Below are positions 4,379 through 56,048 of a DNA stretch of 64,000 bases, piece by piece (position 1 is the stretch's first letter; every line of letters starts with the position of its first letter). Under the pieces are notes generated by a model. That model searched no databases. It saw only the letters and a program-made list of their open reading frames with translations, and was not told where the DNA came from. Source of the stretch: Cenococcum geophilum (Eukaryota). The stretch covers positions 7,688,001-7,752,000 of the forward strand of contig CP158635.1 of assembly GCA_050273025.1 (NCBI GenBank), read 5' to 3'. The translations under genes were made by a program, and so were the position numbers.

Positions 4379-7300
4379 ATGACCTTTAGTAGACCTTCTA
4401 TAGCCTATAAACCAAACTACAGCCGCTACTACTTCCGCTACTACTTCCGCTACTACTTCCGCTACTACTTCCGCTACTACTTCCGCCGCTGCTTCTCCCC
4501 TTATACCACCTATATCAATCTAGCCGCGACTACCTATATTAATTTAGCCGCGACCTACTACAGTCCGCCCTATCGCGGAGCAGCTAGATTGTAGTCCTAC
4601 TACCGTCCGCTCTATTACGGAGCAGCTAGATCTTAGTCCTATAGACATTACCTATAACTTTTACGCGGCCCTACATTGGATTGATAAACGTGTTAGTATA
4701 TTACAGCCTAGCAATCCACAGTTTAAAGCCTACTATAAGCATAGTAATATAGACCTCCCTCTATTCTAGCCTTCGCTAAAATATCTACGCGACCTTTTAG
4801 AGTCCCGTAGTACTTCTGCTAGGTAGTTTAGGGAGCGGCTCCGCGGATATAATATAGTATTGGCTTTTACGTCCGTAAACTGTACTATTACTAACTATAG
4901 TATAGCCTAGGGCGGCCTAAATTGCTTCCAGATATATGGTAAGCTTTACTATCTATAGGGCCCGCTAGAGCCTCCTACTAATATTACTCCGCGGTATACC
5001 TAGCTATACTTTTACAACCCTAGTTATACTATAGATGTCCGGCTATAGGCCTGTCCTAATACCTAGCTAAATATAACTATTCTGTAGTGCCTTACTGCTA
5101 TGCTATCTAAGGTACGGAATCCTTTTATCGCCCTTTATTAAACCGCAAGAAAACGGCTTTAGGCTTAGCCCGTAATAGCCCTATTACAGATTATCTTAAA
5201 CCTATAGATGCGGCTTATCTTAGAGGCTAGTGCTAATTAGCGCCGCAAGAACCTCCTAATAAGTAATAAGGTGGCCGTTATTATACCAAATAAGTACAGT
5301 AATGCCAGCTTTCGCGATATTGTGCTTATAAAGCGTTATATACCTAATAAGTAGCCGCGTTACTGCTGTATTAACTTAACGTATACTATATATATGCCGC
5401 TCCACTATATACTGCTCTTCCCCCGTAGTAATACTAGCTGGCACTAGGGTCTCTAGCTACGCGACTCTAATTAAGCCCGCTAGCGAGACCGTTTAACGTA
5501 GCGGGCGTACTTTTAGTTCTACCTATACGTCTATAATAACTCTAAGTTAGTCCCTTTTGCCTACTGCCGGCTATTTTAGTAGTACGTTATAGATATATAG
5601 GCGCTATATAATTAGAATAAACTTAACTAGATCCGTTCCTACTAACCTAATCTCTATATAGAGCTATATAACGGTGTTACAGATACTCTTACCCACGCTA
5701 ATCTGGACCCTTAATTATTAGGCCGCTATATAGTCCTTCCATTAAGTTTCCTTAGCGGAGCTCACTTTATTAGGCAGTGCTATTAGAATTTAATAGCTAT
5801 TATCTATAAATATAGCCGTCCAAGCATATTTCTTACGTTTACTGCTAACTTTAGGTGGGACGAGATTACCCGCGAGCTACTACCTAGGTAGACCGCTATA
5901 GATAGGCCTAATCTAGTTGCGCACGTCTTCCGTATAAAAGTTACCCACTTCTTATACGACCTAAAACGGAAGTAGATCTTCAGCCGGTACCGCAGCTATA
6001 TTTAGACCATCAAGTACTAAAAATGGGGCCTGCCCTATTAGTACCTACTGCTTTTTTTACATCCGTATAACCGCGACAGGCTGCTAAACCTAGCCGTTAT
6101 CAACCGTTTTATATCCGCGGAGCTTCCGCAGCCGGAGGATAATCCCACTAGTTATCTTACTAAGATTATAAAGTTAATAATGGTTTACGGCCCTTGCGGC
6201 TCCTAGAATCCGTAAGCTCCCTATATAGTTTTGCTAAGGCTAGGCCTTCTGCTAACCTACTTAAAGCGGTACCCTAAGCCTTTTAACCCTATTACTATTG
6301 TGCATAAGGACGGCTATTTAGAATACCGCTGTTATAATAATGGGCGGATATAGTCTATCCGCTTACCGGGGCCTTTTAGAGCTACGTTTAAAATAAATAA
6401 CCGCTAGATTATTCCGTATAGCCTATATCTAACTATAAAGTACTATGCCTATATAAATGTTAAGATCTACGCCTCTATAAAGTCCGTTAAGTATATCTAT
6501 AAGTATATATATAAGGGGAATAACCGCACTACCTTATAACTTACGGACGGCGATAAGGTAAGCTAGTATTTATAGGGCCGTTATATTAGCCCCTCTAAGG
6601 CTATCTAGCGGATATTTAAGTTTCCTATTTATAAGGAGTCTCCCCCTATAATCTAGCTTACGGTGCACCCTCTAGGTAAGCAGCCCGTATACTTTTAGCT
6701 AAACTAATCCGTAGAGGAAATCTAATAGCGCCTTAAGCTCTCCTACTCTACGTTAACGGCCTTCTTTAAGTATAACGTGGAGTATAAGGATGGCCGTAAC
6801 CGCCTATATTAAGACTTTCTTAAGCGGTATATCTTTTATATAAAGTAATGGGAGTAGCGTCTACGCCAGCGAGGCCTTATAATAGGCCGTATATATTACT
6901 ACAGTCCCATTACAGGCGAGAGGTTCTACTTACAGCTACTACTAACCTCCGTTCCTAGCCCTACCTCCTTTAAAGACCTCCGTACTATTGCTAGTATAGT
7001 CTATTTAACCTTTTAGGCCGCCTATATGGCCCTAGGGCTACTAGAGGATAACTATAAGTGGATTAATTACTTTATAGAGGCCGCCGTTTTTGCTACTAGC
7101 GCCTAGCTACGCTCCTTATTTATAACCGCTTTAGTTTACGGCCCTATTACGGAGCCAGTTACTTTATAGGACCGCTTTAAACAGTTTATCTATAATAATC
7201 TACCTTACTTTCTAGCCTAGCAGCCTAATATTCCTATAGTTGGCGAGGATAACAACGCCTATTTTAATTATGGCCTATACCTTATCTATCAGATGCTTAC

Positions 7301-8813
7301 AAATTACTAAAAGACACTTACAGACTATAGTCTACCCTAGTTTTAGCACTAGTAGGCCGTTATTACTAAGGGAAATAACCTGCTTCTTATAGCGGAGCTA
7401 TAGCAATACAACCCTATAGAGGAAGGTCGCTAGTTTACTAAGCTACGCTAGCAGCTAAATACCAATCAGGCAGCGTGCTTTAATACTATTATTGCCGCTA
7501 TAGATACGGGTTTATAAACGGCCCATTTCTTCCTCTAGGGCCCTATAGGCACCGGTAAAACGTTTCTCTATTACTGCCTCTACTACTACTACCGCTCGCG
7601 CGGTAAAATTGTTCTTTGCGTAGCTTCTTCTGGTATTACGGCCCTTTTACTACCTGGCGGTTATACTACCCACTTTCGTTTTTAGATACCTCTTAATCTA
7701 TATAAAGAGTCTACTTGCAATATCTCTAAAAGCTTAAATCTGGCTAAGCTTTTACGCCATACCTCTCTGCTTATTTAGGATGAGGTACTAATATAGCACC
7801 GCTACTACTTTAAAGCCGTATACTATATACTTACGGACGTCCGTTCTAACGACTCTACCTTTAGCGGACTCCCTACTATCTTAGGTAGTAACTTTACTTA
7901 GATATTACCTATTGTCCCACAGGGGAACCATATAGCTATTATAGGTGCCTACCTATAGCGTTTATTCCTCTAGCCTACCTTTTATATACTATTCCTGCGG
8001 TTAAATATGCGTGTCTACTAGGGTAAGGCTAATTAATAGTTCGCAGCTTAGGTACGGAACTTATTTTATAATACGTCCCTATCTAGTAGCGTTACTATCT
8101 TACCTAGTATAGCCTAGTTACGGTCTAAGGAACCCTTCTATAAGTATATATACCCTCCGCAACTGCTTACGCGGGCATATACTACTCCTAATACCTTCCG
8201 CGATCGCGCTATCCTAACCGTCCGTAATAATACTGTCCTTACGCGGCTCTACGGCTCCCTAAGCACCTTTTATTCTATAGACTCTATAGAGTAAAATAGA
8301 GAAGATAATTATATAAAACTGCCGCCGGCGGAGCTCCTGCAGACATTTAACCTTAATAGCCTACCTCCGTTAAAGCTTTCCCTAAAGGTAGGCGCGCCCG
8401 TAATCCTTTTACGGAACCTCTACCCTAATAAAGGGCTCTATAACGGCACCTATATAGTTATTACGCGCGTAGGCCGCCGCTGTATTAAAACTGAGATACT
8501 TAGTGGCAGCTTTTATAACCAGCTACGGCTAATTTCTCGCATTAAGCTTACCTCTACGGAAGGAGAACTGCCGTTTATCGTCAGTAGAAGGCAGTTTCTA
8601 ATCTGGCTGTGCTTTGCTATAACCGTAAATAAGTTATAGGGCTAGTCTTTTAACTTTATTGGCGTTAATTTACGTATGCTAGTCTTTACGTATAGGCAGC
8701 TATATGTTGTACTATTAAGAGTAACGGATATAGCTAGGCTTTTGCTATTACTGCCGTAGGATGGGGATGCTATAACTACCAATATTATATATCTAGAGGT
8801 ATTGCTTTTATAA
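4379..8813 (+). pseudogene. Helitron Rep (HUH endonuclease)-PIF1 helicase
   Basis: de-RIPed motifs: CxxC zinc region MDITCDFCAALHW (~4640), RPSIFLTFTAN (~5815), IEYQKRGLPH (~6010), KYIxKYIYKG (~6490), Walker A QGPxGTGKT (~7535), IWDEVPM (~7773), C-terminal IYPEVLL; start uncertain. Confidence 0.93.
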
Positions 8814-39100: not shown

Positions 39101-40998
39101 ACTCGTATAAATCCAGTATACGCTTCCTTAAGGTTAGTCTAGTTAATATAGAGGTTAAGATAGGGTTTATTAATTTTCTGTTCTAAGAACCTTCGTAAGA
39201 CCTAATGCTTAATTTTAGCGAGACTGTAGTGTTAATATTCCGTCGTCTTTGGGCCTTGAAGCTTAACTCCTAGGGCGTTAAGACCTAGATAATAAAGGCT
39301 TATAGGTCCTGGATAACCTAGACGCAGATATTATAGACGTGCATCTCCTTTTAAGTCTGGATGTGCGTCTCTTAACGATATCCGCTTCCGTTGACGGCGC
39401 GTTAGACGGCTAATATTGAATGCGGATTTTAAGTTTCCTAATTGGACGTATTTGATAGTCTATTATCTATGACGTTCTTCCATTTAATATAGGATTGTGT
39501 TATCCTTTTAAACGATAAGATTGTTGTCTCCTTTATTATTCTAGTAGTATCCTCGTTTTTAAAGTAGACGGAACAACACTAGATTTGTATTAAAGTCCGT
39601 ATAAAAGGCAACGTCCTTAAGACGTAGAATTCCTTTACTCTTGTTTAGTTTTGTGACTTAAATAGTAACGTCGCCGTAGCCTAGTATAGGCACTTGTGAG
39701 CTGCCGGCGATAACATATTTATGTCTTAAAGCTTTCTTAAAATTATAAAAATGAGAGAGGTTATTAAAGATATAAAGAGTGGTTCCTAAGTTAAGAATAG
39801 TTAATAGCTTTAATAGATGGAGTTAATTGGTGTAATATAATTCTAGGAATATTACATTAGCTTCTCCCTTAATCTTAACTTCCTGGCTCTTGTCCTATTA
39901 TTATTAAGCCTCGTCTTCTTATTCTTTAAGTTTAATCTTTATAACTTAGTTAGCGAGGTCCTTATTCTTTTCTACCTTCTTTAGTGCCTTTTTAATGCGA
40001 GCATCTCCTATTATAACTCCTATAGGTCTCTTATCTTTAAATAAACACTAATAGTCCTTAAGGGAGTGTCCTTATATTCCGCACGCTAAGTACTTAGGCG
40101 TTGGCTTCTTATAGGACGTCTCCTTATTTACTAATGTCCCGGCTCTCTTTAAGCGTCTATTGCGTGCTAAGGCTCCTCTTTATAAACCTTTAGTAGTATT
40201 AGAGTAATCCTTAATAGCTTACTCTATAAAGTCTGCATTAAAGGTACTCCCCTTTATAGTAGCATTGGCTTTCTTTAAGGGTCTTATGAGTCCTTCTTGT
40301 AGCTCCTTTACTACTCTGCGGTATTTGGAAGATCTCGACTTTTAAGGGTTATTTGACTTGGTAGTGTACTTCACATAGTAGGCGTTGCTGAAAGGTTAAA
40401 TAACGTCTACTAAATCTTAAAGCCAGATTCCTTCTGATATTTAAGGGATCTTATACTTCTCTCCTAGTACTATTATATGTTCCCATTAATCTAGCTATTG
40501 GTTTAATTTTAATAACTATTTAAACCCCTTAAGGGCTTCTATATACTAGTATTATACCTTCTTCCTAACAAACGACGAGGTAGGTTCTATATTCTCCTTT
40601 AACTAAGATAGCCATTCTTTGACGGTTAAAGAAGGGTTAAGTAGTAGCTTCTTCTAAATTAATACTGTGGACGTGATCTAGGTGCGTATCTATTGCAAAT
40701 ACTCTTCTTATTTTAGGAAGTACTTTATATCTTGGTTATAGTATCGTCTACTATTCTCGTACGCTCTCTATTAATTCGTCGAGAGCTGTATATATAAGGT
40801 TGCATTCTCATTAAAGTCTGTGACCTTTAGAAGAGGTGGTTTTTCAAATAGACCTTCTTAAGGTGCTTCTATGGCTGGGTCAATGTAGGCCCAAATTTGC
40901 TAATCTATAAGGGCTTGTAGTTGCCAGATCTATTACTCCCAGTCTTCTAGCTTATTAAGGATAATCATAGTTAACAAACTTAACGTTAGTGGAGTCAT
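36130..40998 (-). pseudogene. Copia gag-pol
   Basis: YKARLVVCGNQQ, RLRKALYGLQRSP, TRPDIAFAV (RT); LDPRAHISYLVGYNSTNIYRIW (integrase C-terminus); RIP stops. Confidence 0.95.
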
Positions 40999-43450: not shown

Positions 43451-45779
43451 CGTTAAGAGATATCTAGACAGCGTCTTAGCTATAACGAACCTTGCGGCTA
43501 CTCCTAAAGATTATAGAAAGCTAGATAAAGTAGCTATAATAAAAATGGATAAGGGTTTTAGTATTTTTTATTCTAAATCTTACTATATACAAACACACCT
43601 TCCCCTTAAGAAGAGTTCTATTATAAGTCTAGTTAAAAGCCTTATATTAATAAAGAGTTCTCCCTATTAAGACTTCTATATATATATATATCCTAATAGA
43701 AATGCTTAGGATGACTGGAAGTTAATACTGCTAATAATTCCTAAACCATTACGATACTGGCTACAATTCGACTCCCCTTATAATTACATCCCCTATTAGA
43801 CTTATACTCTCGGTTTTAATAAGCCAAAAGATTTTTTAATCCCTCTTATTATAGTAGGAGCCCCTATAATTATCCCTATTCCCTATAAATAGCTACTAAC
43901 CTCTAGCGTTTCCCCTCCTCCTAATCCCTATCTAAAGCTTATTAAACTTTCTAACCTACTAACTGCCACTATAATTAAGGAAATCCTTAACACGTTTAAA
44001 GAATATTTAGGATTCTATTTGCTACTAAACGGAATACTTTAGATTATAGTACCTAAAATTTTCGATCGGGAGTAGGCTTCTTCGCATCTCCTAAATGGGT
44101 TTAGTAGGCTTTAGGTCTGCTATATCTTATAGATAATACGCCCTACTATAGACAAATCTTCTAAACCTATTAGTGCGAAATCCAGCATCGCTAGTGGCAG
44201 CGTTTTAGGCAATATGCGCTTCTTTTTTAAGACGCCCTAATAACCAATTACTACAGGCGTAGCTTTATCTTTACAGCTTAATAGCTTTATAAAAGCGAAG
44301 AAAAAAGCCTCCTAGTCTAAAAAGAGATATCGGGGAAGGATTAGCCTAAAAATGAGGTGTAAAAACAAAACCTACCTTATAATATTAATATATGTTATTA
44401 TAGAAGCCCTTAGAGCGAAAAGCTAGGATGTTACGCCTTTTTGGTCCAAATTATATAGTTCTTATACATATTTAAATAGAGGGTAGGCAGATAAGGTTGA
44501 GATCCTATCTTTAAATAAAGAGGTATGCTAAATCCTACGTCCTGCGACAACGGAATCCTACTAACTAAGTAAAAAGATTGGTAAGGTTATAAAGACCTTT
44601 AATCTTAATACTAAAAAGTACCCGAATAGATATAGGAACGATGTCACTCTAGTTAAAGCTTTTAAAGAAGATCTTACGGCAGAGGTCAAATCCCCTATTT
44701 TTGACCTTAGATGGCTTTCTTGTAAAGGCTAGGATTAACTCCGCTAGCATATAAGCTATATAAAACTCTTAGGCTCTATAGACAGGACGTACTAAAAAGA
44801 CTACCCAGCTAAAAGTATGAAGTTAGATAGAATCTCTAAGTATTTAGTATAGCCTACAAAATTCTCCTACTGTAATTTTCTATCCTTAAGAATAACTAGC
44901 TAATATAGGCGCAGATTATAGGGACTAGAATCCTTTATAACTAATAGCTATTTATTAGGCCCGGAAACGTAAACGACTTATAAATTAAGATTGGGCAGCG
45001 TATAAACTAGTTAGATCTTATTAAAAGCTATATCTTATATTATATCTTGCCGGACTTTAAGGAGCCGACTAGTTAAAGTGCAATAGCTTTATATACAGAA
45101 GGAGTGCGGTCTAATAAAAATACGGAATCGAGCGTCTTAGGGTTTTAGTCGTTTATATAATAGGCGCAAGTTAATATATATAATCTAAAGGACAAGCATC
45201 TAATAAAGAGGCTAGAATTAGGTTAGGTAGCTTTTTATAGGGCATATTAGGTACTAATAGAGATAATAAATAATCATAAGATAGTTTTAGTTATAGTTAA
45301 GTAGACAATTCGGTTTCCAAGGGTATAAAATATCTATTAGAAATAAATCTCCTTATTAGTTTACTAAATTCTATTACGCGCAGCCTATATAGGGCTACTC
45401 ACCGCTTCTAAGGTAAAAAGCCAGATATTACTTATGCAGCCCCTAGTATAACCTATAAAACTATTAAGATTACAACAACGGTTGCAAAACTGTTAATTAT
45501 TAGCATACGTCCAGGGCTTCCTGACCAGCTTAACAAGCATGGCGGCTTAGGGTTGTTTTGGATAATGCGAATAAGCGAGCATAAAATATCCTTATCCAAT
45601 AGAAAATGTATAAAATATCACAATTGAGAAGGATAAAAGTGCCCTGTGCGGGGCTTTTCTACCCTAACTAAGTAGAATTTAGCAGAATTTAGTAGATATT
45701 GCAGATATTATAGATATTATAGATATTACAGATACTGCGGATATTGCGGATATTATAGTAGAAACAGGTCCCTATATAC

Positions 45780-47900
45780 CTCTCCCCCTAACTATATAGT
45801 AGTTAAATACTTAAAGAAAAATTCCCTATCCCTCTTACAGTTCTTCTCTAATGCTAATTCTTTAAACACTCTGTTTTCTTAAGAGTTTTAAAATCTATCT
45901 ATATTCTCTCCCACAATACCATATAACGTCCTCCTAAAAAGACTCTTTCTAGCTTATTACTTATTGCTAGAATTAAGAGAATTTTAATTGCTATAAGTGA
46001 GAGCCATAGCCAGCGCTTTCGTTATTGTTCCTAAGACCACCACTAAAGTGTAGTCGTTAAAATCTTATACGGCGTCTTAGAGATAAAGTCCTTATACTTA
46101 TCCTAACTTTTTAGTTAAAACATTATACTATTAAGATCCTCGGCAATCTTATTAAACTTATTAAGGTCTTAAGCTAGAGCTAGCTTTTTATATAATAATA
46201 TACTTTTAGGCGTAGAACTCCTATTCTAATATCTTTCCTAAAGCTCTTTAATGCTATTAAGTGCAGGCTTACGCCACTCCTTTTCCCAAACCTGCTTAAT
46301 ATATCTTATATAATGGGCTGGATAAAGAATAAATGCAGCGGCGTAAAGGGGCGAGATATCTATTTTATAGTAATATTTATTAAAGGTATTTTAAGTATTT
46401 CTAATACGTTTAGAGAACTCTTTATTAGATATATACTCCTTCTATTATATAATATTAGCTAAATTAGAAAATAAAGTAGGGAGATAAACTAACCTAAGAT
46501 TTATTAAGGTGCTTAATTATAATATCTATTATAAAGAGTACATTCTTAAGCGTTGCTTCATATCCCTGGTATTTTAGGGTTACCTAGTAGAATATCTAAA
46601 GAAACCTTTTTATTATATAAAGCGCCTCCCAGTCCTTTAGACTAAGATAGCCCTTTTTTAGTGTATTAAGATTACGCTTAGTATACGTATTAAGGGCAGA
46701 CTCTTTCTAAATTGCTACGCTAAGTATAAAATACTAGCTATTCCATCTTGTATAATTATTAAGCGGAATTCTTCTCCCTATATGACTTTTAAACTCCCTT
46801 ATATAACTAGCTAAGCTATGGGTGTATATAGTAATATTATAAAGCTTTCTAAGTACGCTAAGTTTCCAAAATGTATTACTCTTCTCTTCCTCCTCTTTTA
46901 GATCCAACTCTTTTCCTTTTGCCTTATCTTCTTCGTACAACTTAATATTATTAAGACTTATTAAGTTTTTAAAGAGGAAATCCTAAACGGCAAGGTTTAG
47001 AATATAACCCTAATAGCAGATCCGTTGGTAAACGGGGTTCCATTTAATTCCTTCTTCTTAGAAAAGCTAGTCGCTTATTATACAGCAGAGCTTATTATTT
47101 ATAGTATAGTTATTGGATATAACAGTACCCAGCTTTTACGTAATCCCGTAGTTCTTAAGCACTAAAAGGAAAGTATTCTATTACTTGTCCCCGCTATAAG
47201 AGGCTACTATATGGAGGCCAAGAGAGTGTTTATAAGCTTTTCCTAGCTATTAATAAAATGGCCGCAAATCGCGAGGAGAAGGTGATTATTTAAAGAGGTC
47301 TAGATATTAACGGAGAGATAAATACTTATTAGTGTAGACTGCAGCCTCTTTCGTACAATATCCTTTTATAATAGCTATAAGTTATAAACTTTTTTTACTA
47401 ACTATTAAATGGGCTATAGTTATATGGCCGTCTACTTTAAGATTAATTGACTATAAAAGGACATAGAACTCCGACCACTTAACTATTTAAAATAGTAGGT
47501 TTTGTATAACAATTAATGTAATGAGGGCCTTATTAATAACTTCCTTATTTAGGACCGCTTGGAGTACTTCTAAATCTAGCTCTTCTATCTTATTTTAAGA
47601 TAACGCTTTAAAGTAAAGATCTTTTAATTAATCCTATATTACTTCTTTATATAACTAGTTTAGGCTTAACCGTAATGCTATGCTTTAACGCCAAGTAGTT
47701 TTGGAAATTAGAAGTTAACTACGCAGTGTATAACTCTATACAGTGTTTATAATAGAATAAAAGACGGGAATTTTTATTTTATACGAGCTTATTACTACCT
47801 AGTGGGCGGGTATGCTCCCATATTAAAAGAGCTAAGCGACCTCTTATATTTTTTAATTTAGAGGTATTAGCAGAGTCAAGAGCTTCTAATTCTACTTCTA
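45780..47900 (-). pseudogene. hAT-family transposase remnant
   Basis: RIPLNNYTRWNS (ORF 46734-46940), RICY*GYILNLAV (~47000), dimerization domain WW...IPAMSDEPERVFS (~45930-46045); TIRs not resolved. Confidence 0.88.
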
Positions 47901-48566
47901 AAGTTATATTTATATAATAACAAAGAAGTAAACCTTTAAACCGGAAAAGTAATAGTCCGACGTCTAAGCGGGCTTAAACCGCCTAGGCCACGCACACTTA
48001 GGCCAAATCTTAACGTTGTCACCAAAGGTAAGCCCCTTTCTCGGAAAAGTTAGCAAAATTCTATATACGGCTTAGTTAATACCTAGAAATACCTAGTACG
48101 CCTTAATATAAGATAGGGCGCGGAGTTAGACTTGCTCTAAAAGTATAAGATAATATATTGCATTTTATATATTTTCTAAGAAAAAAATATACGTTTAGTC
48201 CTTTTTCTAGTACATAATAAACGATTATAATAAAACCTAGCGCTAGGTTTCTAAAGGTATATAATTACTAGTAAAATTGGCTTAAAGCTTTTTTAAGACT
48301 GAAAAGTAACCGTCTAATAACCGTCCAGTAATAGTCCAGTAGAGGTCTAGATGTAGTATAGGTAACTATTCTTAAGGGGTACTACTAGGAATTTGGCCTT
48401 ATCTACTAAATTTTCTAAGAAAAATCTTAAAAGCGGGCATACGCCGTAAGCACGAATTTTTTAACGTAGTAGATACTAAATCTTATTATAAATTCTAAAT
48501 ACGCACTTATAATTCATCGGAAAAAAGAGGAAAAACCATAAAAAAAGTTTTATCTTTTTATTGCGC

Positions 48567-49890
48567 TAATTAAGATTATTATTATCCTAAGGCCGAGATT
48601 CCCCTTTAAGTTCTCGGTATTTCTAAGCAATTTAGTAATTACTCTTATATACCTCCACCTTTAAACCTTTTTAATATATAAAAACTTCGTTAAAACCTAG
48701 CAATTTTCCTTAATATTTAGCTCTTGCCCTTGCAACATCCTCGGTATTAATTATTTAACGTTTTAACCAAGCTTTTAATACTATTTCCATCTATTTTATA
48801 CGCCTACTTTACTTAGAGCTCTTATTAACCCTAGAAAAGTCCTTCTAAAAAGTAGTTTTACTAGAATATATACTATATATTAATAAAATAGTCTATAAAA
48901 TAAAGTATAATTAGTAAATATAGGTAGGGCTTTTAATATAAATTAGATATATTAATACCTTTTACTCTAAATAGCCCTTTTTTTAAGGTTTCCTAAGACT
49001 CTTTTACTACGCCACAGTATAATTAAGCCTAATATTTTAATAGAATTGGAATAACTTTTACTTTTATAAGTAAAGAGTAGTACTAATTATAAAATAATTA
49101 AGAAATATTATTAGTATAACTAATAATTCCATGCGGCCATATAATATCCTTATTTAAGAACTTTAGTAGTATTCCATTTATAGTAATTTTCCTAAATAGG
49201 TAATAGTTTTCTTAGAGTAGTAGAGAATATTTAAGGGTATTTAACTAGAAAATTAAGGTTAATACTTAAGGTTAGTTAAGGTGCTAAACGGCATTAAACT
49301 AAGATAAATTTCGTATAAATTTTATAAAAGTCTCTTAAAGACCTTGCTATACTAAAGTAAAATCTCTAGCAGTCTTAATATTCAAGTTAAAATTAAATGA
49401 ATTCTGCCTTTAAATAGTAACCTCTACTTAGAGAGGTAAAGCGCGATCTTTTTCTTAATACAGCTAAGATATATTAGAGAAATTCTTAGAGACTAAAAGA
49501 GTATAAAAGTGGGTCTTAAAGGGACTAAAAAGTAAAGGTATTTTTTAGTATTTTTAAAGATCATTTATACGGTATAGGTGAATTCTTAGAGGATTAATAT
49601 CCTTTATATCGGATTCTTTAAGAAACTGCACCGTTTCTCCTTTATCTTGCCTAAAGAAATTAATTATATTTTTCTATTAAGGATATACTCTTATTACGGT
49701 TATACTAATATTTCCTTATAAATTGCAATATCTTTATATATTCTTTTTTTAGATTAAATAAATTCCTTAGTAAACCTAAGAAGCCGTTTATTTTAAACGG
49801 CAACTACAGTATCTTAAGCTTTATTTCTTATTAAACCTAAGGTTCCTCCTATACCCCAAGCTGCTACTTTTTTCTTTTTAATAGAGCCAT
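48567..49890 (-). pseudogene. Unknown gene divergent from the tyrosine recombinase
   Basis: ATG at 49890; de-RIP readable stretches such as MEIVLKAWLKRQIIDTEDVARARAK; probable introns; no domain recognised. Confidence 0.45.
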
Positions 49891-50145
49891 ATTGAGAAAA
49901 ATAATTACAATAATAGAACTTTTAGAGATTTTATTAAAAATATCTTAAAATTTTAGATATTTAATTTTAGATTTATATAGTAAAAATGGCTGCATTAGCG
50001 GTTTTTTCTATAAACGCTAATTATTTTTTAGATTTCTTTAATAAAGGACTTACCCCACACCTTATTTTTACTAAAAACCTTCCAATTATTTTCCACGCAT
50101 ATAAGCCTTAGAAAAATTAAGAATTACTTTCTTTCTTCTTGGAAA

Positions 50146-51725
50146 ATGTCTTATCTCTCTTAAATTAACTCTTTTCTTTTATTATTAGATACTAAAACTC
50201 CCTTAAATTCTATATAGAAAGCTATAAAAGATACTAAAATTAATAAGGAACTTAATAAGCAATAAGAGATTTTAGTAGCAGAATCTAATAATTCTGTTAA
50301 AATTAATAAGTTATTTAAAACTATATATAAGGCTATAGAGGGTATATTAGCACCTCTAACTTTATTAGGTTATATAGGGTATATTTCCTATATATTCTAA
50401 AAATTTAGTTAAAAATACTTATATCTAATAAAATTATTCTAGGCAAATAAAAAAGTATATTAAATTTATAAAAAAGAAAGCCCTAGAGCTTGAAAAGTTC
50501 GTTAAAAAGCTAAATAAAGATGTTCTACTATTAATATGCCTATGGATTTAATCTGTCTATAAAAAGGCCACACCTAGCTTATCTTCTTAGTTACTATAAG
50601 AAAGTAAGAATAGAACCTAATTATATACGCAAAAAATGCGTATAGCAGTCTCCTATTTCTATGCTCACGAGGTTCGTTTTAAAAGTAATTAATTTTTTAA
50701 GAAAAGTAATAGAGAATGGACAGAAAACCTAATACTTTTAGATATTGTAGTAAGATATATAAGAAGTCTATATAAACAAAAGGTATATTTTCTTTCTCGG
50801 TAATACCAATAATTATTTACTATTTACTATAACTAACGCTATTTTATAAACGTATATAGAAGAAACGCAAAAAAGTATAAAAGTAATTACTATATTAAAG
50901 CTTTAAGAGCTTTACGAATATAACGAATCTTAAATATACTTCTTAGTTATCCCGTCTTCCTATAGGTTAAGAAAGACGGATTTAAGGAGGTGTTTATCAG
51001 CGTATTATAATAAGCCTTATATATACAATAGCTTTTGCCTATTTTCTTAGATTTAATAAGGTTCTACATATTAAAGTTCGGTATATTTAAATCCATAACC
51101 TTACTACTAGAAAGGTTAAACTTACGCTTAATTTTCGGAAAACACATTAAATAGGAGGTAAGATATTAAAATTTTAAAAGTATATCTAATTTTAACGGCT
51201 TTATAGAAATCTAACCCTTTTTTCTTTACTTTAACCAAGAAGAGCCCTAGCTTAATATACCCACTCTTCTACTTAAATGGCTAGATATCTCAAAAGTTAC
51301 ATTAAGTTACTTATTTAGACTATTTAATGCATTTAACTAGCCAATAGTTAGTAAAAATATTAAATTAGTAGGTTTTTTATTATTTTATAGAGAGTTTATT
51401 ATTTTAATATTTTATCTAAGCCTCTAGAGTTTTTCTTTAGAATTTTTAATAAAATCTTATTAATATTAGGGAAGATCCGCTTGTTTATAGGGGCCACTCC
51501 TTTTAAAGGGGTAGCGTTTAGTATTTTTCTAGTAAAAAATGCTAGGGAATTCGGAAATTATATAGTTAGGAAGGCTAGAGCTTAGAGTTTAATTCTTTAA
51601 CAATTATATAGTATCTTCTTAGTAAAAACAATAATCTAATTAAATCTTATAAGGATTATATAAATCCTAAGGCTTAAAAAGGTACCTTATATCCTTATTA
51701 TAGAAGATCTTATAATTGTGCTTAA
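50146..51725 (+). pseudogene. Tyrosine recombinase (Crypton-like), multi-intron, RIP-inactivated
   Basis: de-RIPed motifs HAQKMRAAVS (~50625), AFACFLRFDEVL (~51030), LDFRKTHQ (~51127), YGGHSFRRGGVQY...W...WGGWS (~51486-51580), C-terminal CxxCGRSCxC; GT...AG introns. Confidence 0.85.
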
Positions 51726-52217
51726 TATATAGTTTTATTAGAATATCTTTATATATATATTTAACGTAAGTAATAGGGTTATAATGGATGGTATAGCTAT
51801 AATAGTAAGACCTTACTACCTTTTTAAATAGACTTCCTATCTACCTAATTAAGTATATTACTAGTTCTAAAATTAAAATAATAGAAACCTACCTCTATTT
51901 TAAATATATATTATATTCTTTAATTAATATCTAATATAGATCCTATATAGGCCTATATAGACTACTCCATATATAAAGAAATTTATATATTTATAAAAAA
52001 AAGCTCCTAGTATTATATTTTAAATACTTATACTATAATACCTTACTAGCCTTTATAACCTAATCGTAATAAAACTATATAAATCGCTACTAATACTTAG
52101 CGTTTTAGCTATTATAATAATTAGAGAGCCTATATAAAAGCCTATAGATTAGATCTTATAAGATATAAGCTTTATACTTTTTAAGTAATCTAATATATTA
52201 AAATAGTATTAAATTTA

Positions 52218-52932
52218 GGACAACGATAGCCATACACCCCCTAAATGATACGTGTACACCCCCCAATTGATACGCATACACCCCCTACCTCATTTGGTTT
52301 AGATGCATCCTCATTAAGTTAGATGCTCCCTTATTAAGTTAGAGTATCATATACGTTTGACTTGTTTGCGTCTACATCGCGAAAATTAAAGTATGCGCCA
52401 TATAGGTTTTATAACTGCAATATCACAATTATATCTTAATTTTAGTTATAGTATAAGTAGTAGAGTTAAAATTGGAACGCGCTAAAGTCGATTAATTGGA
52501 TTACGCGGTGCTTTATGAGGCGTCGCGTAAACTAATTTGCGTGCTACTACCTCTGCTGCCTCTGCGCCCACACCCGCGCCCACGCATGCGCCTATTGGGA
52601 CCTAAAATAATAACTCTACTTCGTATTTAAGAGCTTATAATTATAGAGCGTCGCAGTAGTTAGCTAATTAACTCTATAACCTACTTTATAATTACTAATC
52701 GCGTTAACAGATCTACTTATAAAGAGCCTTTAGCATTTAAACAAAATACTAGGGCTTATACTTTGGTTTTCGCGATTAGGCGTAAACAAGTCAAACGCAC
52801 GTGATACTCTAACTTAATAAGGGAGCATCTAACTTAATAAGGATGCACTAAACCAAATGAGGTAGGGGGTGTATGCGTATCAATTGGGGGGTGTACGCGT
52901 ATTATTTAGGGGGTGTATGGCTATCGTTGTCC
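52218..52932. mobile_element. 715-bp non-autonomous element with ~170-bp TIRs (Mutator-like)
   Basis: GGACAACGATAGCCATACACCCCC... / ...GGGGGTGTATGGCTATCGTTGTCC; flanked by TAAATTTA on both sides. Confidence 0.88.
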
Positions 52933-53754
52933 TAAATTTATAGATCAGGCTTATATTATTAATTTATCTATTTATAGAGTTAGTATCTATATATATAATA
53001 TAATAATAAGGAGGTAAGTTACTAGCCTTTTATACTATTAAAAGATTAGCTTTTAATACTCCTACTTAAATTAATAATATAGGTTAATAACTTTTACTTA
53101 AATTAACTATATAGAAAAGAGAGCTTCTATTTAATCCTTATATAGATTATATAAATAGATAGACTAAGTAAAGTATAGGCTTATTAAACCTTAAAATAAA
53201 CTCTTGTAAAAAAAGTAAAAAAAGAGTATTTAAGTAGATTTCTTTTTAATAAATAAAATCTAAATATTATAGTTTAACTAATCTTTTATAAATTATTATC
53301 CACCTATTCTCTATAAATAGATAGTCTCTTAATAGGGCTATATTTTATACCTATTAAAGAATATATATTAAGTACTTATTTTACCTAAAAATAGCTTTTA
53401 TTAATATTATACTATAGCTTTTTTAACTTTACTTTTTACTTTATATACTTTAATAATTCTTTTACTATTCTTAACCACTATTACTTATTATAGGTTTTAG
53501 ATTATAATATTAGATAATAAAATACTTTTTAGTTTTTTATATAGGGCTAACTACTACCCCTAGAGCCTATAATAGATTAGGTAAATATAAGTAATACTAC
53601 TTTACTTTTTATATAATTATTAAGTAAGTATATGAAAGTGTATATACCTATAAATATTTAAATATCTTAAGAGAATTATTTAAAAAGAATTAACCCCTAC
53701 TAGGTAATACTTAAAGACTTAGTTATATAAAAATAAAAATAGAGGGGGGAAAGG

Positions 53755-55550
53755 TATTATAATAGATATTATAGTAGATATAGAGCTTTATAAAGAGTAT
53801 CTAGCAGGGCTTTTAGTAGAGCCTTTAGTAGAGCTCTATATGGGGCTTTATATAGAGCTTTAAAGAAGCTTTATAGAGAGTATCTAGCGGAGCTTCTAGT
53901 AGAGCCTTTAGTAGAGCTCCATGTAGAGCTTTAGTAGAGCTCTATACGGAGTCTTAGCAGAGCTTCGTGCCGAGCTTTTAGTAGAGCCTTTAGTAGAGCT
54001 CTATATAGAGCTTCGTATAGAGCTTTATATAGAGCTTCTAGTAGAGCCTTTAGCAGAGCTCCGTATAGAGCTTTGGTAGAGCTCTATACGGAGTCTTAGT
54101 AGAGCTTCATGCCGAGCTTCTAGCAGAGCCTTTGGTAGAGCTCCGTGTAGAGCTTTAAGGGAGCTTTATAGAGAGTATCTGGTAAAGCTTCGTATAGAGC
54201 TTCTAGTAGAGCCTTTAGTAGAGCTCCGTATAGAGCTTTAGTAGAGCTCCGTATAGAGCTTTGGTAGAGCTCTATACAGAGCTTCGGTAGAGCTCTATAT
54301 AGAGTTTTAGTAGAGCTTCGTGCCGAGCTTCTAGTAAAGCTCTTAGTAGAGCTCCGTATAGAGCTTTATGTAGAGCTTTAAGGGAGCTTTATAGAGAGTA
54401 TCTGGCGGAGCTTCGTATAGAGCCTTTAGTAGAGCCTTTAGTAGAGCTCCGTGTAGAGCTTCAGTAGAGCTCTATGCGAAGCTTCGGTAGAGCTCTATAC
54501 AGAGTCTTAATAGAGCTCCGTGCAGAGCTTTAAGGGAGCTTCGTAGGGAGCCTCTAGGAGCTTCGTGTAGAGCTTTCTAGCAGAGCTTTCTGGCAGAGCC
54601 TTTGGTAGAGCCTCTAACTTAGTTTTAGCCCATGCCGTATTTAACTAGGAGTCTACTGGTTTGTGGTGATTCTAGCTTAAAGCTAGGCTCTATAATTAAT
54701 TTCCCTAGCTACTAAAGCTTTACTAGAGCTTTATATGGGGCTTTATATAGAGCTCTATATAGGCTCTACACGGAGCTCTATATAGGCTCTATACGGAGCT
54801 CTACTAAAGGCTCTGCTAGAAAGCTCTGCCAGAAAGCTCCGCTAAAAAGCTCTATACAAAGCTGCCAGGGGCTCCCTACGAAGCTCCCTTAAAGCTCTAT
54901 ATAGAGCTCTGCTAAGACTCCATATAGAGCTCTACTAAAGCTCTACTAAGACTCCGTACAGAGCTCTACCGAAGCTCTACATAGAGCTCTACTAAAGCTC
55001 TGCATAGAGCTCTACTAAAGCTCTGCATAGAGCTCTACTAAAGCTCTATATAGAGCTCTACTAAAGCTCTGCACGAAGCTCTACCGAAGCTCTGCACGGA
55101 GCTTTACTAAAGGCTCTACTAGAAGCTCTGCTAGAAGCTTAGCACAAAGCTCTACCAAGACTCCGTACAGAGCTCTACTAAAGCTTTATATAGAGCTCTA
55201 CCAAAGCTCTACACGGAGCTCTGCTAAAGGCTCTACTAAAAGCTTTGCTAGAGGCTCTCTATAAAGCTCCCTTAAAGCTCTATATAAAGCTCTATATAGA
55301 GCTCTACTAAAGCCTTTATTAGAAGCTCGGTATAAAGCTCTGCTAAGACTTTATATAGAGCTTTACCGAAGCTCCGTATAGAGCTCTACTAAAGCTCTAT
55401 ATAGGGCTCTTTAACTACTATAATGTCTACCACAAAGCTCTACGCGAAACTCTATTAAAGCTCTATTAAAGCCTTACGCGGAGCTATATTAAAGCCCTTA
55501 TACTAAGCCTTATATAGAGCTCTATATAGAGCTCTACGTCTATTATAATA
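53755..55550. repeat. Foldback structure of ~11-bp AGAGCTCT-core minisatellite arms
   Basis: 53755-54615 is the approximate reverse complement of 54715-55550; ends TATTATAATAGA / TCTATTATAATA. Confidence 0.85.
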
Positions 55551-56048
55551 TTTATCTCTCTATAACTTCTATAACTATATTAACCCCTAAGACCTAACTT
55601 AACCTAACTTATTATATAGTTTAGTACCCTAGCTACTATATTATTACTTACGTTAGTCTTTATATAGATATCTTAAAATAGTAAATAGTATAAGGGTTTT
55701 AACTTACTTAAAGGCTTTAAGCTCTTCTCCCCCCCCTAGTAGGTACTATACTTCCTTCTATATAAGCTTACTAAGCAGCTATATAACTTACTTATAGTCT
55801 TTTAAGAAAGCCTAGTAGAAGTTATAGAATCCTAAAAAAGATTATACTCTATTTATAGAGGTAGAAGGTTCCTAATATAGCTACCTTATTAGAGTCTATA
55901 GCGATCTTATTAGTTTTAATAATAAAGCCTAGAAACTTTATCTTAATAACGCTAAACTTATTTTTTTAATATCTACCTAAAGGCCTACCTCCTAAAGCCT
56001 TTATAAGACCTTCTTAATATAGATATTATACTATAGCGGGTTGTCTAA

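Follow-up and report, generated by a model that had tools for sequence, protein, structure and literature searches.

A tyrosine recombinase gene and its divergent partner in a RIP-mutated locus of Cenococcum geophilum: probable remains of a Crypton-type DNA transposon

What kind of element leaves behind a tyrosine recombinase (YR) gene and a head-to-head neighbor that belongs to no known family, both interrupted by numerous stop codons? The question is raised by a stretch of 64,000 nucleotides from Cenococcum geophilum (contig CP158635.1, positions 7,688,001 to 7,752,000), which we call the window and number from its first letter. A preliminary description of the window had proposed, at 48567..51725, a two-gene YR cassette that is present in many copies, has been altered by repeat-induced point mutation (RIP), and shows none of the marks of DIRS/Ngaro, CryptonF, or Starship elements. 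We consider it quite likely that the locus is a copy, killed by RIP, of a fungal Crypton-type YR DNA transposon that occurs in many copies and has a dedicated accessory gene, and we set out below the evidence for this reading together with the alternatives.

Two divergent pseudogenes and their catalytic remains

The window is AT-rich nearly throughout, and between 48 and 52 kb, where the GC content is 24 to 29%, the longest open reading frame (ORF) does not exceed about 70 codons. The raw, RIP-altered frames of the locus had no informative match in Pfam. Word-based searching with the RIP-altered frame-1 exon returned 309 candidates, none of them at E ≤ 1. We searched for YR relatives by exhaustive phmmer, with window frame 3 as the query, its stops written as X, and a cut-off of E ≤ 0.001. 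This search returned 31 proteins, mostly short ORF fragments at most 89% identical; P0015 (271 amino acids) and others were intact (labels: P, protein relative; L, metagenome locus; X, public sequencing run; A, alignment). The closest named fragment came from Cenococcum geophilum itself (89% identity over 62 residues of window frame 3). With P0015 as a second query we retrieved full-length relatives, namely, P0038 from Emergomyces (626 amino acids), P0039 from Physcia (518), P0041 from Paramarasmius (573), and P0040 (585), whose cluster includes Suillus proteins named "DNA breaking-rejoining enzyme." Intact YR relatives come from soil and root metagenomes. For the search of metagenome contigs we used the YR alignment A2, A1 being too diverse; the A2 scan confirmed 296 relatives, and 80 loci with flanks were retained for counts.

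Aligned to the window by tblastn, the intact homologues gave co-linear matches in three plus-strand frames (50489-50785, 50977-51156, 51206/51239-51370, and 51420/51429-51710), with E values of 7e-30 for P0038 (summed), 1.9e-27 for P0015, and 8e-22 for P0022. By eye, the intervals between these matches have GT..AG borders and branch-like CTAAC or TTAAC motifs, and the N-terminal exon (50146-50377) resembles the N terminus of P0038.

The intact relatives carry the motifs LRIDE, FRKT, GHSFRRGG, WGGWS, and TIVRY and a terminal CxxCGRxCxC, so that all six catalytic residues are present. A profile of five relatives matched Cre of phage P1 at E = 6.6e-6, LRIDE aligning with LLRIAE, FRKT with GRTKT, GHSFRRGG with GHSARVG, and WGGW with AGGW, and the Pfam family Phage_integrase gave weak matches on the full-length relatives (E = 7.8e-5 for P0040). 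Cre is the best solved relative by profile, with Arg I/Glu, Lys, His-x-x-Arg, and Trp all aligned, but it is only a distant relative within the superfamily and has no such partner gene. The candidate nucleophile (Y231 of P0015) does not vary within A2, and the alignment with Cre stops just short of this residue. On these sequence comparisons, the YR belongs to the tyrosine recombinase superfamily; a SAM-like domain forms its N-terminal part, followed by a catalytic domain like that of Cre and, at the C terminus, a short Cys cluster. The window copy has 20 in-frame stops in its aligned codons. Because stops have replaced the codons for Arg II and for both Trp residues, this copy is dead, a functionless fossil.

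The second gene lies on the minus strand. When we compared window 47900-50150 with the 80 loci by tblastx, L005 and L076 matched opposite their YR strand (E = 1e-26 to 1e-28), and tblastn placed the L076 partner exons on the window minus strand at 49652-49377 (3e-5), 49193-48960 (2e-8), and 48889-48584 (6e-13). A profile of the partner domain also matched minus-strand frames of the window, at E = 1.1e-11 and 2.4e-5. In L076, the partner occupies three minus-strand exons (2098-1911, 1856-1160, and 1103-786; 401 codons) and the YR ATG stands at 2289; L005 too has an intact three-exon partner head-to-head with its YR. Both of these loci are un-RIPed, with GC contents of 0.42 to 0.45. In the window, the aligned partner codons contain 20 in-frame stops.

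These comparisons bear out the preliminary description of the two genes: the YR gene is spliced, its catalytic motifs and C-terminal Cys cluster are RIP-mutated forms that align with those of intact relatives and Cre, and the head-to-head pair, stated to be about 255 bp apart, begins at ATGs at 49890 (partner) and 50146 (YR) and ends at stops at 48568-48566 and 51723-51725, matching the extent given (Table 1). The spacer between the ATGs is presumably a shared promoter region. As a separate observation, L030 has a 75-bp imperfect palindrome (2153-2227, 79% complementary) between its divergent ATGs, a candidate regulatory or protein-binding site.

Table 1. Features of the element relic in window coordinates (asterisk in a motif, stop codon)
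Feature	Position	Strand	Remarks
Whole element relic	48010..51775	.	about 3.8 kb; left end approximate
Partner pseudogene	48566..49890	-	three exons by homology, about 49890-49715, 49652-48960, 48889-48566
Spacer between divergent ATGs	49891..50145	.	255 bp; in relatives 190 bp (L076) and 181 bp (L005)
YR pseudogene	50146..51725	+	five exons, about 50146-50377, 50444-50782, 50860-51157, 51208-51352, 51405-51725; tblastn of P0038, P0015, P0022, P0039, P0040
Arg I codon	51049..51051	+	kept; FLRFNK here, LRIDE in relatives; corresponds to Cre R173 (profile alignment)
Catalytic Lys codon	51139..51141	+	kept; FRKTH* here; aligned with Lys of Cre GRTKT
His-x-x-Arg box	51495..51506	+	GHSF*RG; His kept, Arg II codon now TAA; GHSFRRGG in relatives, GHSARVG in Cre
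WGGW box	51567..51578	+	reads *EG*; both Trp codons are stops; last Trp aligns with Trp of Cre GGW
Candidate nucleophile Tyr codon	51612..51614	+	kept; II*YL here, TIVRYL in relatives
C-terminal Cys cluster relic	51690..51725	+	reads LYPYYRRSYNCA*; relatives end in CxxCGRxCxC; three of four Cys positions now Tyr

Co-inheritance of the two genes and the nature of the partner

Next, we looked at how regularly the partner accompanies the YR. It was present in 44 of the 80 loci by tblastn and in 48 by the domain profile, a count that two more rounds left unchanged. The loci without it are mostly short on one side; by hand count, 12 of the 13 loci having at least 2 kb upstream and at least 1.3 kb downstream of the YR contain it. 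In the 43 loci whose layout was scored and in which 150 or more YR residues are aligned, the partner is divergent and upstream in 15, convergent and downstream in 26, and upstream on the same strand in 2. We placed these layouts on a YR tree built by a quick method from 74 loci, five database proteins, and the window. A single clade of 36 rows (SH-aLRT [Shimodaira-Hasegawa-like approximate likelihood ratio test] support of 98) takes in the window, all 15 divergent loci, and one of the same-strand loci, and it contains none of the 26 convergent loci. Layout changes 3 times on the tree, versus a mean of 15.1 after shuffling, and none of 200 shuffles gave a value as low. The window groups with L023, L007, L005, L076, L001, and the Emergomyces protein (support of 99); the Paramarasmius protein lies among convergent lineages, and the Suillus-type P0040 lies near the base, outside the large clades. 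Furthermore, the pairwise identities of YR and partner covary (Spearman coefficient of 0.62 for 814 pairs from 41 loci, pairs above 95% YR identity being left out), a value reached by none of 500 permutations. The covariation of identities and the distribution of layouts on the YR tree therefore indicate that the two genes are a unit inherited together over a long time and that the partner is dedicated to the YR, as the preliminary description had inferred. Spacing can differ between related loci: YR and partner lie about 6 kb apart in L071 (7029-12990) versus 1.4 kb in the related L065 (2358-3764), and L071 seems to have several kilobases of extra DNA between the two genes.

The partner protein has about 400 residues, with a conserved C-terminal domain of 175 residues. 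Its N terminus in L076, MAPKQRKAQRYNREKRQ, is basic, which would fit a nuclear protein. A word-based search retrieved only seven close relatives, all without names. We compared 50 partner sequences with Pfam (translations of 3 exons and two sets of ORFs, 8 long ones and 39 others); among them was one sub-threshold match to Myb_DNA-bind_3 (E = 0.0034, a partner ORF of L059). A first structural model, from eight sequences, had a predicted local distance difference test score (pLDDT) of 62 and no fold match (best Foldseek E value of 1.2, best VIA Z score of 4.2). A second model, of the 175-residue domain from 66 rows, reached a pLDDT of 96.1 and a predicted template modeling score of 0.84; in it, beta-hairpins alternate with helices, including a helix of 34 residues. 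Its best match in a VIA-wide comparison was a designed trimer (Z score of 4.4, root mean square deviation of 2.7 over 48 residues).

One reading of the partner would bring the locus close to a known group: the element could be of the CryptonF type with its GCR1_C domain on a separate protein, the partner being a very divergent GCR1_C. The partner shows a W-D/E..W...G.P...W pattern that may resemble GCR1_C. In a protein-language-model atlas, the cluster nearest to the partner domain (score of 0.90, 173 of 256 shared features) has GCR1_C in 33% of its members, but 4 to 10% of shuffled proteins reach the same score. The YR has mostly oomycete hypothetical proteins as its atlas neighbors (0.98), along with an NDC10_II cluster (0.97), a DUF3504 cluster appearing only at rank 30 (0.94). 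Ndc10/Cbf2 is described as CryptonF derived (Kojima and Jurka 2011, PMC3212892). Against such a split element, GCR1_C matched none of the 50 partner sequences at E values up to 1 to 10, and the partner profile gave two chance-level matches only among PDB sequences (E = 0.3 to 0.4), with no Ndc10 chain at E ≤ 10. We regard a split CryptonF as rather unlikely.

Extent, copies, and surroundings of the element

On the right, window 49913-51775 corresponds to L023 1-1865 at 84% identity, and homology ends there. For the left end we also tried L031, which proved truncated and uninformative: the part that it shares with L024 begins inside the YR gene. Sequence comparison and tblastn found no second copy of the element within the 64-kb window. 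Elsewhere it is multicopy. Among the sequencing runs listed, 20 of 24 contain part of the stretch and none contains half of its words; depth and variants were taken from contigs of four public runs at at least 80% likeness over a 12-kb stretch. In X1, the summed contig depth, which does not equal copy number, is 5,458 to 8,536 over 48010-51618 versus 86 in the flank bins 44401-45202, and the contigs have 80 to 99% likeness; in X5 the depth is 929 to 1,661, and the flank is hardly present. The element thus exists as many diverged copies per run, and related copies sit in different flanks.

The copy in the window is RIP affected. For 48010-50145 and 50146-51775, respectively, the TpA/ApT index is 1.54 and 1.46 and the (CpA+TpG)/(ApC+GpT) index is 0.40 and 0.39, at GC contents of 0.25 to 0.27, whereas the intact relatives have indices of 0.68 to 0.78 and 1.16 to 1.37. 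RIP is indicated by values above 0.89 for the first index and below 1.03 for the second. In X1, 1,010 of 1,109 variant places in the 12-kb stretch are transitions (91%), and stops in all six frames are almost exclusively TAA or TAG. The preliminary description was accordingly right to call the locus multicopy and RIPed. These observations also bear on whether the two genes are, or once were, a pair of host genes or a recombinase system that the host has domesticated, the window then containing a duplicated, RIPed segment. Both genes have introns, and many relatives are annotated in fungal genomes as hypothetical or as DNA breaking-rejoining enzymes, as such a pair might be. The locus is not single-copy, however; many diverged copies per run with different flanks, 296 metagenome relatives, and heavy RIP, a process that acts on repeated DNA, make a host origin very unlikely.

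Three pairs of related loci delimit the element on both sides: L030/L080 at 4.77 kb (91% identical; L030 71-4843), L065/L071 at 4.89 kb (L065 742-5635), and L048/L050 at 2.56 kb (L048 189-2748). The delimited relatives contain the two genes and noncoding tails only, with no ORF as long as a reverse transcriptase (RT). Self-comparison of the three elements found no terminal inverted repeats (TIRs), no long direct or terminal repeats, no split direct repeats, and no internal complementary region. AAAT stands at both ends of L030/L080. As a side observation on the tails, a 20-nucleotide motif occurs six times in the 1.6-kb noncoding tail behind the YR of L076 (3498-5105) and three times in L005.

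The same relatives speak to the idea that the locus is the YR end of a DIRS or Ngaro retrotransposon whose RT and RNase H have been lost or lie outside the range. Such elements carry YRs and occur in fungi (PMC3783388), and retroelement debris is found throughout the window; a zinc knuckle resembling that of gag, near 40 kb, is one example. DIRS and Ngaro elements have RT/RNase H and one of two repeat arrangements, either split direct repeats or inverted repeats at the termini together with a complementary region inside the element, whereas the relatives delimited on two sides (L030, L065, and L048) have neither set of repeats and hold two genes only. Moreover, Pfam detected no RT in the frames of the locus or in its left neighbor (45.2 to 48.0 kb), and none in five full-length relatives and 22 fragments, in which DUF3435 (PF11917) and DUF3504 (PF12012) also had no match. 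We therefore find this origin hardly credible.

Several other repeats surround the element. Adjoining its left side, on the minus strand at 45200-48009, is what RIP has left of a hAT transposase (match to Dimer_Tnp_hAT at E = 3.1e-4, slightly short of the Pfam cut-off); its summed depth in X1 is roughly threefold that of the YR element. To the right, 52210-52932 is a small element with 93-nucleotide TIRs (52210-52302 and 52848-52940) that are 98% complementary. Contigs of X1, X5, and X10 join 52209 to 52933 with eight shared letters, which corresponds to an empty site and to the 8-bp duplication made by hAT-type elements; this small element, and not the YR element, accounts for the only skip joint with long sides and three runs. 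Because its composite RIP index is 0.67, versus about 1.1 around it, and its GC content is 0.39, it was probably inserted after most of the RIP. Satellite-like, partly GC-richer repeats at about 53600-55600 have the peak summed depth of the stretch (up to 67,868 in X1) and many back-and-forth joints, and the tail of L023 carries the same kind of repeat. Farther upstream, the minus strand at about 40100-40200 shows a zinc-knuckle pattern of the gag type (C..C....H....C, interrupted by RIP stops), which suggests a long terminal repeat retrotransposon relic.

Placement among recombinase-mobilized elements

Goodwin et al. in 2003 are said to have described Cryptons as class II elements with a YR and no RT. 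The broad definition, a DNA transposon defined only by its YR, is given in PMC8092012. In the delimited relatives the YR is the sole recognizable enzyme and there is no RT, so that, judged by gene content, the YR/partner family would count as a Crypton in the broad sense. It also shares with broad Cryptons the introns, the lack of TIRs, and the fungal hosts, at a size of 2.6 to 4.9 kb. Broad Cryptons have direct terminal repeats of 4 to 6 bp that match the target; the AAAT at both ends of one delimited pair resembles these, and the other two pairs show no comparable repeat. Second genes described in Cryptons encode a DDE transposase, a C48 peptidase, or a helix-turn-helix protein (PMC13465315, PMC3212892), whereas here the second gene is conserved and belongs to no known family. 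Finally, most Cryptons have 1 to 30 copies (Additional file 1), and the summed depth here suggests more, although depth is not copy number.

Within the Cryptons, CryptonF, which occurs in fungi and oomycetes, shares the fungal host, an intron-containing YR, and a similar length, but it carries GCR1_C on the YR protein (PMC3212892); here, none was seen on five full-length relatives (GCR1_C, PF12550, no match at E ≤ 1 on P0038 to P0041 and P0043), and the YR ends in a Cys cluster. CryptonS is likewise described as lacking GCR1_C, with a conserved C-terminal region of its own and an extra gene in some members (PMC3212892), but its hosts are given as stramenopiles (oomycetes and diatoms), its termini as TATGG, and its extra gene as a C48 peptidase. 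The oomycete neighbors of the YR in the atlas are a lead toward this group. DUF3504, which marks CryptonA, was absent from the five full-length relatives and 22 fragments. With respect to Starships, the locus could be what remains of a captain, or a fragment of a giant element with cargo: Starships are YR-mobilized class II elements, common in Pezizomycotina and often RIPed (PMC9156397, PMC11162782). Their captains have DUF3435, however, and stand at the 5' end of a large element with cargo, whereas the elements here have no cargo, are delimited at 2.6 to 4.9 kb (about 100 times smaller), and lack DUF3435 in all of the relatives searched; the family also occurs in Agaricomycetes (Suillus and Paramarasmius), outside the Starship range given in the same two articles. 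A Starship origin is thus most improbable.

Taken together, the Pfam results (no RT, GCR1_C, or DUF3435 in the relatives; Phage_integrase weak) and the absence of TIRs from the three delimited relatives agree with the preliminary description, and within the scope of Pfam and the literature the locus does not have the described layout of CryptonF, DIRS, or Starship elements. No YR element with this partner is described in the full-text literature searched, which takes in neither the Repbase and Dfam collections nor Goodwin et al. 2003 and the supplements of bioRxiv papers, so that "undescribed" is provisional.

Several observations weigh against a two-gene Crypton-type transposon. L023 and L007 have flanks that are 98.6% identical and therefore count as one independent locus, which makes one related locus in support of the right terminus; the left end is a depth step only, between the bins 47609-48009 and 48010-48410. 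L065/L071 has no short terminal repeat and L048/L050 has only TC, and neither an empty site, nor an excision product, nor a target duplication was seen for the YR/partner family. In L076, direct repeats of 230 bp (81% identity) lie near both contig ends (61-289 and 5446-5671), and these may reflect tandem copies, a repeated target, or a longer element. L028 has ample flanks and no detectable partner. None of the 50 partner sequences matched a Pfam family above cut-off, and the second model (m2484a0d611df) found no structural match (best E value of 2.7 by Foldseek against the PDB and 0.61 against BFVD), a result that is no proof of a new fold. Since the partner has no structural match, the role given to it here is a guess.

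With these points included, a dead copy of a Crypton-type element remains the reading that we favor, and the family to which it belongs is widespread. Such an element would consist of two divergent genes and little else, the YR and its partner of about 400 residues; its mobility, recombination mechanism, and left end, as well as the partner's role, are what we infer. In living relatives, the YR would most likely excise the element as a circle, in the manner of Cryptons, and the circle would reinsert through site-specific recombination at a very short sequence that it shares with the target, reverse transcription playing no part; this follows Goodwin's model of excision and reinsertion as summarized in PMC9977147 and PMC13465315. 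Because the partner is co-inherited with the YR, it would most likely be an accessory factor encoded by the element, a subunit that binds DNA, chooses targets, or sets direction; the co-inheritance extends across Ascomycota-type and Basidiomycota-type lineages. According to PMC9977147, a Crypton was first seen to transpose actively in 2023; CryptonF-1_cRei, which also serves here as an analogy for the mechanism, was observed to be active in Chlamydomonas (PMC9977147, PMC13465315).

More tentatively, and less likely than not, the YR/partner cassette could represent an undescribed ancient superfamily of eukaryotic YR DNA transposons that predates the divergence of Ascomycota-type from Basidiomycota-type lineages, in which two element proteins are needed and the partner, of a new fold, selects or shapes the DNA. 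If so, dozens of copies might have accumulated in a genome of the ectomycorrhizal type, bloated by transposable elements, before RIP killed the element, and the partner might be a eukaryotic counterpart to the pairing of an integrase with a directionality or targeting factor.

For Cenococcum geophilum, 94% of transposable elements are reported to be RIP affected and 17.8% to be unclassified (PMC12910237, 2026); the passages of that article that were searched mention no tyrosine recombinases, DIRS elements, or Cryptons. If the favored reading holds, repeat annotators could name some of the repeats that are now left unclassified in very repeat-rich fungal genomes. Moreover, eukaryotes have few YR-mobilized DNA transposons, which are poorly understood, and a co-inherited second protein of unknown fold would offer a simple two-gene system for target choice and the control of direction in eukaryotic YR elements.

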